Shown here piece by piece: positions 58,626-58,770 of a DNA stretch of 64,000 nt. This DNA is from a virus (taxonomy: Duplodnaviria > Caudoviricetes). The stretch covers positions 21,643-85,642 of the IMG/VR virus record IMGVR_UViG_3300026549_000063; one strand, given 5' to 3'. Position 1 is the stretch's first letter, and each line of letters opens with the position of its first letter. The translations under genes were made by a program, and so were the position numbers. The notes under the pieces are model-generated. The model was not told the origin of the DNA, did not search any database, and worked only from the letters and a program-made list of their open reading frames with translations.

Positions 58626-58770
58626 TGTGAGGCACAGTGCTGAGCTAACCGACACTCAAAACTGGTAGAACAAAATCCTGTTGCTCTACTGTTAGCATCT
58701 TCCATAATTATTCTCCCTTATGTCCGCTGATGTTCAGACCGTGCTGCCGAAAGGCGGTGCGGTCTTTTTT
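58626..58770 (+). ncRNA. Candidate small RNA carrying an anti-RBS sequence
   Basis: Bounded by the upstream terminator and its own GAAA-loop terminator; GCTAAC/GTTAGC stem; unpaired CCATAATTATTCTCCC. Confidence 0.5.

Follow-up and report, generated by a model that had tools for sequence, protein, structure and literature searches.

A conserved candidate non-coding RNA next to the polymerase gene in an uncultured rumen phage and its predicted pairing with the start site of the neighbouring gene

Genomic context of the locus

A unit of about 145 nt (58626-58772, + strand) adjoins the 3' side of a gene for a family-B DNA polymerase and has a strong intrinsic terminator as its 3' end. It is located in a window of 64,000 nucleotides, the whole stretch of DNA that was analysed, which corresponds to bases 21643-85642 of a virus record in IMG/VR with a length of 85.6 kb. 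The source is an uncultured cattle-rumen phage, designated W in the following; the public runs that contain it are gut samples, among them bovine and pig gut. A DNA search of the GenBank phage collection gave no match, and no cultured phage is near at the DNA level. By protein, the nearest GenBank phage polymerases are those of jumbo phages, with only ~25% identity. The labels L001, L010, and G001 all denote one sister phage, and two clades are distinguished, W/L009 and L001/L013.

The polymerase gene (56092-58557, + strand; PHROG 2927, E 1e-105) likely starts at ATG 56092, because its L001 homologue, an orthologue with 89% identity, begins at the corresponding Met. The phage also encodes an anaerobic ribonucleotide reductase (NrdD/NrdG), a 3936-aa tail-fibre/lysin-like protein, a SNF2 helicase, two SUKH-type proteins, and RNase H. 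Scanning for tRNA and tmRNA genes detected 12 tRNA genes in one block and no match within the unit region. At 26103-27830, a 575-aa protein is specified that is listed as 'RNA-binding protein' in PHROGs, contains the Pfam domains DUF2828 and DUF7788, and shows a weak, sub-threshold match to the Ro60 vWA domain (E 0.009).

Downstream of the unit, a cluster of + strand genes begins with gene 58863. For its protein, no Pfam or PHROG match was obtained, four homologues only were detected, hits in the ESM Atlas were confined to unnamed clusters, and the AlphaFold model (pLDDT 39) was unusable. The GTG start of the next reading frame (59642-60250) overlaps the stop codon of 58863, and translational coupling is therefore possible. 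This frame contains Cys-x2-Cys motifs and a sub-threshold Ogr/Delta zinc-finger match, and it is followed by two paralogous SUKH (SMI1/KNR4) immunity-like genes (60316-61156). The features of the region are the following, with start sites abbreviated as TIRs:

56092-58557, + strand: polymerase gene, with the unit inside or beyond its 3' UTR
58566-58588, + strand: 10-bp hairpin after the polymerase stop codon, then only four T; seen in the sequence, W/L009 clade only
58616-58705, minus strand: 29-codon open reading frame behind a canonical SD and ATG; from the open reading frame list
58621-58626, + strand: -10-like hexamer TATATT (TATAAT in L001/L013); CTATAWT kept in 4/4 homologues
58644-58696, + strand: 5' domain, an inner hairpin enclosed by a 6-bp outer stem; RNAalifold, 2 pairs with compensatory changes
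58700-58719, + strand: conserved single-stranded anti-TIR block ('seed'); 19/20 positions identical between the clades
58736-58771, + strand: intrinsic terminator with a 13-bp G+C-rich stem, GAAA loop, and T-run; terminator scan, W and L001
58781-58797, + strand: consensus promoter copy between the block and the 58863 start site; conserved in L001/L013 and G001
58805-58827, + strand: 7-bp hairpin in the 58863 5' leader, right after the promoter; conserved, a G.U pair of W being A-U in L001
58853-58866, + strand: SD and start codon of 58863; no other predicted pairing partner of the block is conserved
58863-59645, + strand: gene 58863, 260 aa, first gene of the + strand cluster
27865, 29221, 36940, 40528, 41412, 55965, and 58781, + strand: consensus promoter copies; five more are located in the first 21 kb of the record

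Promoters and terminators around the unit

The consensus promoter-like motif consists of a TTCAT box, TTTNANN, and TATATATTAC. At least 12 copies are present, all on the + strand, and they precede, among others, the polymerase gene, NrdG, 37006, 40617, and 58863; a shared leader comes after several of them. The sister phage has the motif as well, and relatives with 40-55% polymerase identity carry it as ATATATAWTA downstream of their polymerase gene, an indication of a promoter class common to the whole group.

A second motif, the 11-mer ACTAACTATAT, had been taken in the initial annotation as a sign of later expression of the unit. Its two copies at 58615 and 33706 do exist, but it was rejected as a promoter class. 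Allowing up to one mismatch, six matches were found versus 3.3 expected, and 10 of 100 shuffles reached six, a frequency explained by chance; the sister phage has no counterpart of the copy at 33706, and no repeated class emerged. The region behind that copy (33807-36884), described as a structural operon, was not shown to be structural. With the motif not being a conserved promoter, the assumed later expression loses its basis.

The unit had further been described as flanked by two terminators. The downstream one, a 13-bp hairpin with T-run at 58736-58771, was called on the + strand as described. The upstream one could not be upheld: the hairpin 58566-58588 is followed by four T only, was not called in the terminator scan, and falls into a 41-nt gap of the L001/L013 alignment. 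In these two sequences the unit is found directly after the polymerase stop codon, so that it may simply be the polymerase 3' UTR. In the promoter scan of the unit region (W and L001), no sigma-70-type promoter was called on the + strand. The hexamer 58621-58626, beside which a -35 element is absent, is a possible promoter of the unit itself.

The missing hairpin between polymerase stop codon and unit in L001/L013 and the lack of a called promoter would be expected if the locus were nothing but a conserved polymerase 3' UTR with its terminator. The anti-TIR block would then be a functionless fossil or a chance copy of a start site, and its match to the neighbouring gene would reflect the stereotyped nature of start sites. 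We regard this explanation as unlikely, although it deserves serious attention.

Structure of the unit

Using RNAalifold, a consensus fold with 30 pairs was obtained, four of which show compensatory double changes; this covariation rests on few events, because only two clades are available. The fold is made up of the 5' domain, an unpaired middle part holding the block, and the terminator. In the terminator, compensatory changes occur and several G.U pairs would be A.C on the minus strand. These pairs and the T-run fit the + strand only. For the 5' domain, the same test was ambiguous. Two G.U pairs of the outer stem fit the + strand only. In the inner hairpin, each clade shows an A.C mismatch when read as the + strand, at neighbouring positions; read as the minus strand, this mismatch is a G.U pair. 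The consensus fold of the 5' part reached -18.5 kcal/mol on the minus strand versus -13.8 kcal/mol on the + strand. Compared with shuffled sequences, folding of the whole unit yielded z = -2.5 for the + strand and z = -2.4 for the minus strand.

The block (58700-58719) is the complement of an SD sequence, a 7-nt spacer, and ATG, and includes the seed CCATAATTATTCTCCC (58702-58717). It is unpaired in the consensus fold and accessible in all four homologues, with unpaired probabilities of 0.8-1.0 for the anti-SD part versus a mean of ~0.45 for the unit. The block is also the longest conserved unpaired stretch of the unit, which speaks against a mere fossil.

Searches of the region against Rfam gave no match at gathering thresholds to any family, c4, RsaA, and sbrA included. 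The best sub-threshold scores were 13-19 bits versus thresholds of 39-175. The putative RNA family is new in the sense of having no Rfam match, but its mechanistic kind is already known. The unit is most likely a non-coding RNA rather than a protein-coding stretch.

Contigs from RNA libraries were available from six runs of several bovine-gut studies; all are unstranded, and DNA carry-over is possible. One X3 contig (58341-58743) bridges the 3' end of the polymerase gene into the unit. Contigs from X3 and X5, representing two studies, both begin at 58822, downstream of the 58781 promoter, which hints only weakly, if at all, at a transcript start there. The uncovered stretches, 58744-58821 (X3), 58551-58821 (X5), and 58806-58865 (X18/X19), carry no evidential weight.

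Conservation of the unit

The unit was detected in four sequences only: W, L009 (98% identical), L001 with its equivalents L010 and G001 (77%), and L013 (76%). When 23 loci from relatives whose polymerases are 40-55% identical were searched with covariance model R1, no homologue was revealed, the best hit (E 0.007) being in an unrelated place, and the family is thus confined to the two clades. A pattern scan of genome contigs gave no match, and searching viral contigs with an alignment of the neighbour protein retrieved the same sister phage only.

Between W and the sister phage, the intergenic region containing the unit aligns over 81% of its length with 78% identity. Most of the 39 intergenic regions compared align little or nowhere. 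This conservation, far above that of most intergenic DNA, argues for constraint on the unit and against the assumption of a fossil. The block taken alone is less telling, since 19 identical positions out of 20 at a background identity of 77% are only marginally unusual, with an estimated ~0.05 per 20-nt window.

Some distant relatives have the promoter of the next gene right behind the polymerase gene, and others have unrelated structured units there. Examples of the latter are L020 4073-4270 (also in L021 and L002) and L022 3084-3290 (also in L028), with z = -3.8 and -6.1, respectively. Each contains an anti-SD motif of the CCUCC or CUCCU type, placed in L022 inside a 12-nt terminator loop, and on the minus strand each bears an SD, an ATG, and a 20-codon reading frame. 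Altogether, anti-SD motifs occur in non-homologous units behind the polymerase gene in L020/L021/L002, L022/L028, and L004. By inspection only, no obvious match of these motifs to their own downstream start sites was seen. A different arrangement was found in L023 (5290-5540, the same in L003): a consensus promoter right after the polymerase stop codon is followed by ~215 nt without apparent gene (by eye, ATG frames of 2 and 11 codons only) and a terminator. The next gene has its RBS after this terminator and no promoter of its own, a layout resembling the leader of an attenuator or riboswitch.

Complementarity to start sites

Pairing of the seed across SD and ATG of three genes had been noted in the initial annotation and is present as described, with 8+7 bp and a 1-nt bulge for 39850, 5+9 bp and a 2-nt bulge for 58863, and 6+7 bp for 37006. 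In total, four start sites of W were predicted to pair with the seed at -15.8 to -17.9 kcal/mol, and start sites account for 5-6 of the 9 best sites genome-wide. Two of the target genes had been called HExxH paralogs. While both 37006 and 39850 carry HExxH, BLASTP showed no paralogy between them; detectable paralogues are 39850 and 40617, with 45% identity.

These sites had led to the proposal of a later-expressed, trans-acting sRNA that shuts off early translation. With a generic seed directed at many presumed early genes (39850, 37006, 58863, and others), it would be the RNA counterpart of T4 RegA, which represses about 30 mRNAs at their start sites (PMC3014915). The number and strength of the sites, the accessibility of the seed, and the consensus promoter that 37006 and 58863 share with the polymerase gene and NrdG would fit this role. 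The complementarity also exceeds that of shuffled seeds (p ~0.002). Where start sites are stereotyped, however, any RBS complement 'targets' many genes, and predictions should therefore be judged by nulls derived from start sites and by orthologues, not by shuffles. When real RBSs of W were reverse-complemented, 7 of 69 gave an equal or better sum over the top three sites. The list of three genes is thus uninformative by itself, because any anti-RBS does as well, a result also to be expected of a fossil. The same is true for the longest exact match of the W block to any W TIR, which is 9 nt and equalled by 46% of real TIRs.

What needs to be explained is the presence of a textbook TIR complement in this unit. 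No more than 38 strong SD+ATG sites lie apart from called starts in 171 kb, counting both strands, so that finding one inside the 145-nt unit is about a 1-3% event, a frequency not readily compatible with a chance copy. Such sites with reading frames of 28-30 codons outside called genes were also seen at 41454, 44854, and 43179, all on the + strand.

For comparison of orthologues, the two complete phages, W and G001, were used with crude gene calls of our own, yielding 51 BLASTP pairs. Among these, 58863 ranked first (-17.4 kcal/mol in W, -17.6 kcal/mol in L001/G001), followed at some distance by a pair with -12.0 and -12.5 kcal/mol. The sister orthologues of 37006 and 39850 have lost the match (-8.9 and -10.1 kcal/mol), and the best seed targets of the sister phage are genes other than those of W. 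Only the adjacent 58863 keeps its match, and with a target set no better than that of any anti-RBS and a late promoter motif neither conserved nor repeated, shut-off of many early genes is not sustained by these data; we consider it quite improbable.

In L013, the neighbour TIR is a third, diverged version, and it pairs at -15.9 kcal/mol. None of 50 control seeds derived from real start sites matched all three variants of the neighbour TIR equally well (worst value for the seed -15.9, best control -15.7), which speaks against a fossil. Two of the 50 matched the neighbour start site, which is similar to other start sites, in both genomes. Among 51 control seed pairs, three had any conserved target at -17.4 kcal/mol or better, and this proportion leaves room for the fossil. 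Overall, conserved complementarity to 58863, as predicted from the sequences and with start sites taken into account in the null (p ~0.02-0.06), is suggestive but not conclusive. The seed substitution separating the clades improves pairing to the L001 and L013 TIRs by 2.8-3.9 kcal/mol and leaves that to the W TIR unchanged. In MFE folds of hypothetical read-through transcripts, the block pairs with the 58863 TIR in W, L001, and L013.

In another view, the block and the 58863 start site would be inverted repeats bounding a segment (58718-58852) that can invert and thereby direct its promoter towards either 58863 or the minus-strand reading frame. Imperfect inverted repeats of 14-16 nt do flank the terminator and the promoter. 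On the other hand, the repeats are bulged, the right arm has diverged between the clades and the left arm has not, all four homologues have the same orientation, and no strand-changing joints were found in contigs. An invertible segment is therefore hardly credible.

The seed of the sister phage is perfectly complementary over 16 nt to the start site of a 137-aa cassette gene, which is duplicated and which W lacks; this exceeds its match to the 58863 orthologue. This match to a lineage-specific gene keeps a multi-target reading alive. The RNA could accordingly be seen as a general translational repressor, made by the phage and retuned in each lineage, that would gradually titrate the start sites of an entire class of phage or host mRNAs, again a counterpart of RegA; in that case, the substitution in the sister seed would have created the match to the newly acquired, duplicated gene. 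Such a general function seems to us as improbable as early shut-off. The cassette copies are located at 51728-52141 and 61271-61681 in G001 (reverse-complement coordinates) and at 12875-13288 of L035 (minus strand). In the sister phage, where it occurs twice, the cassette comprises a terminator, a promoter of the consensus type, a leader, the 137-aa gene, and a terminator, and has the look of a mobile regulatory cassette.

The minus-strand reading frame

The complement of the block reads as a textbook SD, 7-nt spacer, and ATG on the minus strand and is followed by a reading frame of 29 codons (58616-58705), as stated in the initial annotation. There it had been suggested, as an alternative, that the frame is real and forms a pair resembling type I toxin-antitoxin systems with the RNA. 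In such a case, the block would be the genuine RBS of a small minus-strand gene (29-32 codons), and the + strand RNA would be its overlapping antisense partner, as in Ibs/Sib. Ibs/Sib is a type I toxin-antitoxin system with a fully overlapping antisense RNA, and the arrangement of an RNA of ~140 nt opposite a very small reading frame with RBS is similar here.

Several observations are in line with this alternative. As a 20-mer with 19 specified bases and one free position, the block complement starts real reading frames of 84-368 aa in five unrelated viral contigs; since real genes use it as a start, a genuine minus-strand start site is possible. Moreover, the frame is open in 4/4 homologues, pairing in the inner hairpin favours the minus strand, and minus-strand frames with SD, ATG, and 20 codons are present behind the polymerase gene in two other lineages, the peptides of these lineages being unrelated, however.

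Comparison of W and L001 over the first 23 codons did not reveal a coding signature. The 15 differences are distributed 6/5/4 over the codon positions, and one synonymous change stands against nine non-synonymous ones. In a control with the last 300 codons of the polymerase gene, 103 of 141 differences were found in one codon position, which was taken as the wobble position because the control was extracted out of frame. In addition, an indel of 1 nt alters the reading frame towards the C-terminus, and L009 no longer has the stop codon. The peptide is hydrophilic and not membrane-like. On the minus strand at the unit, no conserved promoter or terminator was found, and promoter-like hits were weak and no more frequent than in shuffles. 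Taken together, the substitution pattern, the indel, the stop loss, the hydrophilic peptide, and the lack of conserved promoter and terminator make a conserved protein gene unlikely, although 15 substitutions are few and mere translation of the frame is possible. Type I toxins are small, usually hydrophobic peptides under purifying selection, a description that does not apply to this frame. In contrast to Ibs/Sib, it specifies a hydrophilic peptide, shows no purifying selection, and no promoter was found for it. Therefore, a toxin-antitoxin-like pair is disfavoured, and we judge this alternative to be improbable.

A possible mechanism

As the best explanation we put forward, tentatively, that an RNA from the end of the polymerase gene masks the start site of 58863, either in trans or within read-through transcripts. 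A non-coding + strand RNA would be produced where the transcription unit of the polymerase ends, and it could be the polymerase 3' UTR, a fragment cut from this 3' UTR, or a short transcript initiated at 58621-58626 by a weak promoter with a -10 element only. That the + strand is transcribed, where the RNA begins and ends, and whether it represses are elements of the model that we infer. The block would pair with SD, spacer, and AUG of 58863, so that the start site would be buried and 30S subunits excluded. In trans, the terminated RNA would act on 58863 mRNAs initiated at their own promoter (58781-58797). In cis, the block would fold back onto the 58863 start site in transcripts reading through the terminator, and only transcripts from the proximal promoter, which do not contain the block, would be translated, as in the case of T4 lysozyme. 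Both routes may coexist. The trans route was rated slightly above the cis route because of the strong terminator and because conservation extends to the whole unit, 5' domain included. The order of block, terminator, consensus promoter, leader hairpin, and TIR fits sequestration of the T4 type as well as a trans-acting 3' UTR or sRNA.

Comparison with known systems

For the T4 genes e (lysozyme), soc, 49, and I-TevI, long early transcripts are untranslated, their SD and/or AUG being covered by a complementary segment further upstream, while transcripts from proximal promoters, located between this segment and the start site, are translated (PMC3014915). Similarly, the promoter 58781-58797 is located between the block and the start site, and MFE folds pair these two. 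Unlike in gene e, the partners are ~135 nt apart with a strong terminator between them, and the upstream partner is part of a separately conserved, folded unit.

[quoted passage not shown] The phage unit likewise has a C-rich anti-SD motif, and in L001/L013 it is contiguous with the 3' end of the polymerase gene. In contrast, icaR mRNA pairs with its own 5' UTR, whereas here the partner is the next gene and the start site of the polymerase gene is unmatched. Self-pairing of the icaR type was tried as a candidate and rejected, with values of only -6.4 (W) and -11.6 kcal/mol (L001) for the polymerase start site and -7.9 kcal/mol at best for the leader.

In the virulent Pseudomonas phage PAK_P3, ncRNA1 and ncRNA2 are derived from 3' UTRs, measure 89-210 nt, have no start site of their own, and accumulate during infection (PMC10914365). 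The putative small RNA described here would also be placed at the 3' end of a gene; it has no sequence relation to the two PAK_P3 RNAs.

Small RNAs of Firmicutes with C-rich (UCCC) seeds, such as RNAIII, RsaE, and LhrC, are host regulators with multiple targets and often possess several C-rich loops. The unit resembles them in having an unpaired motif of the UCCC type facing GGGA/GGAG SD sequences, followed by an intrinsic terminator. It differs in having one block, which also covers the AUG, and one conserved partner. Occlusion of a phage gene's RBS by pairing is typical of phage antisense repressor RNAs, c4 of P1 and P7, sar of P22, and CI RNA of P4, which serve in the immunity of temperate phages. 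A small phage RNA covering the RBS of a phage gene is also what is proposed here. The unit, however, has no match in Rfam, in which c4 is a family, and an immunity context is not apparent. To our knowledge, functions or targets have been established for few ncRNAs of virulent phages.

Conclusions

If masking of the start site takes place as proposed, 58863 would be a gene whose dosage or timing matters to the phage, in a cluster that also harbors SUKH-type immunity-like proteins and RNase H. The locus would then offer a concrete and testable example of how an uncultured phage of the rumen controls translation by means of RNA.
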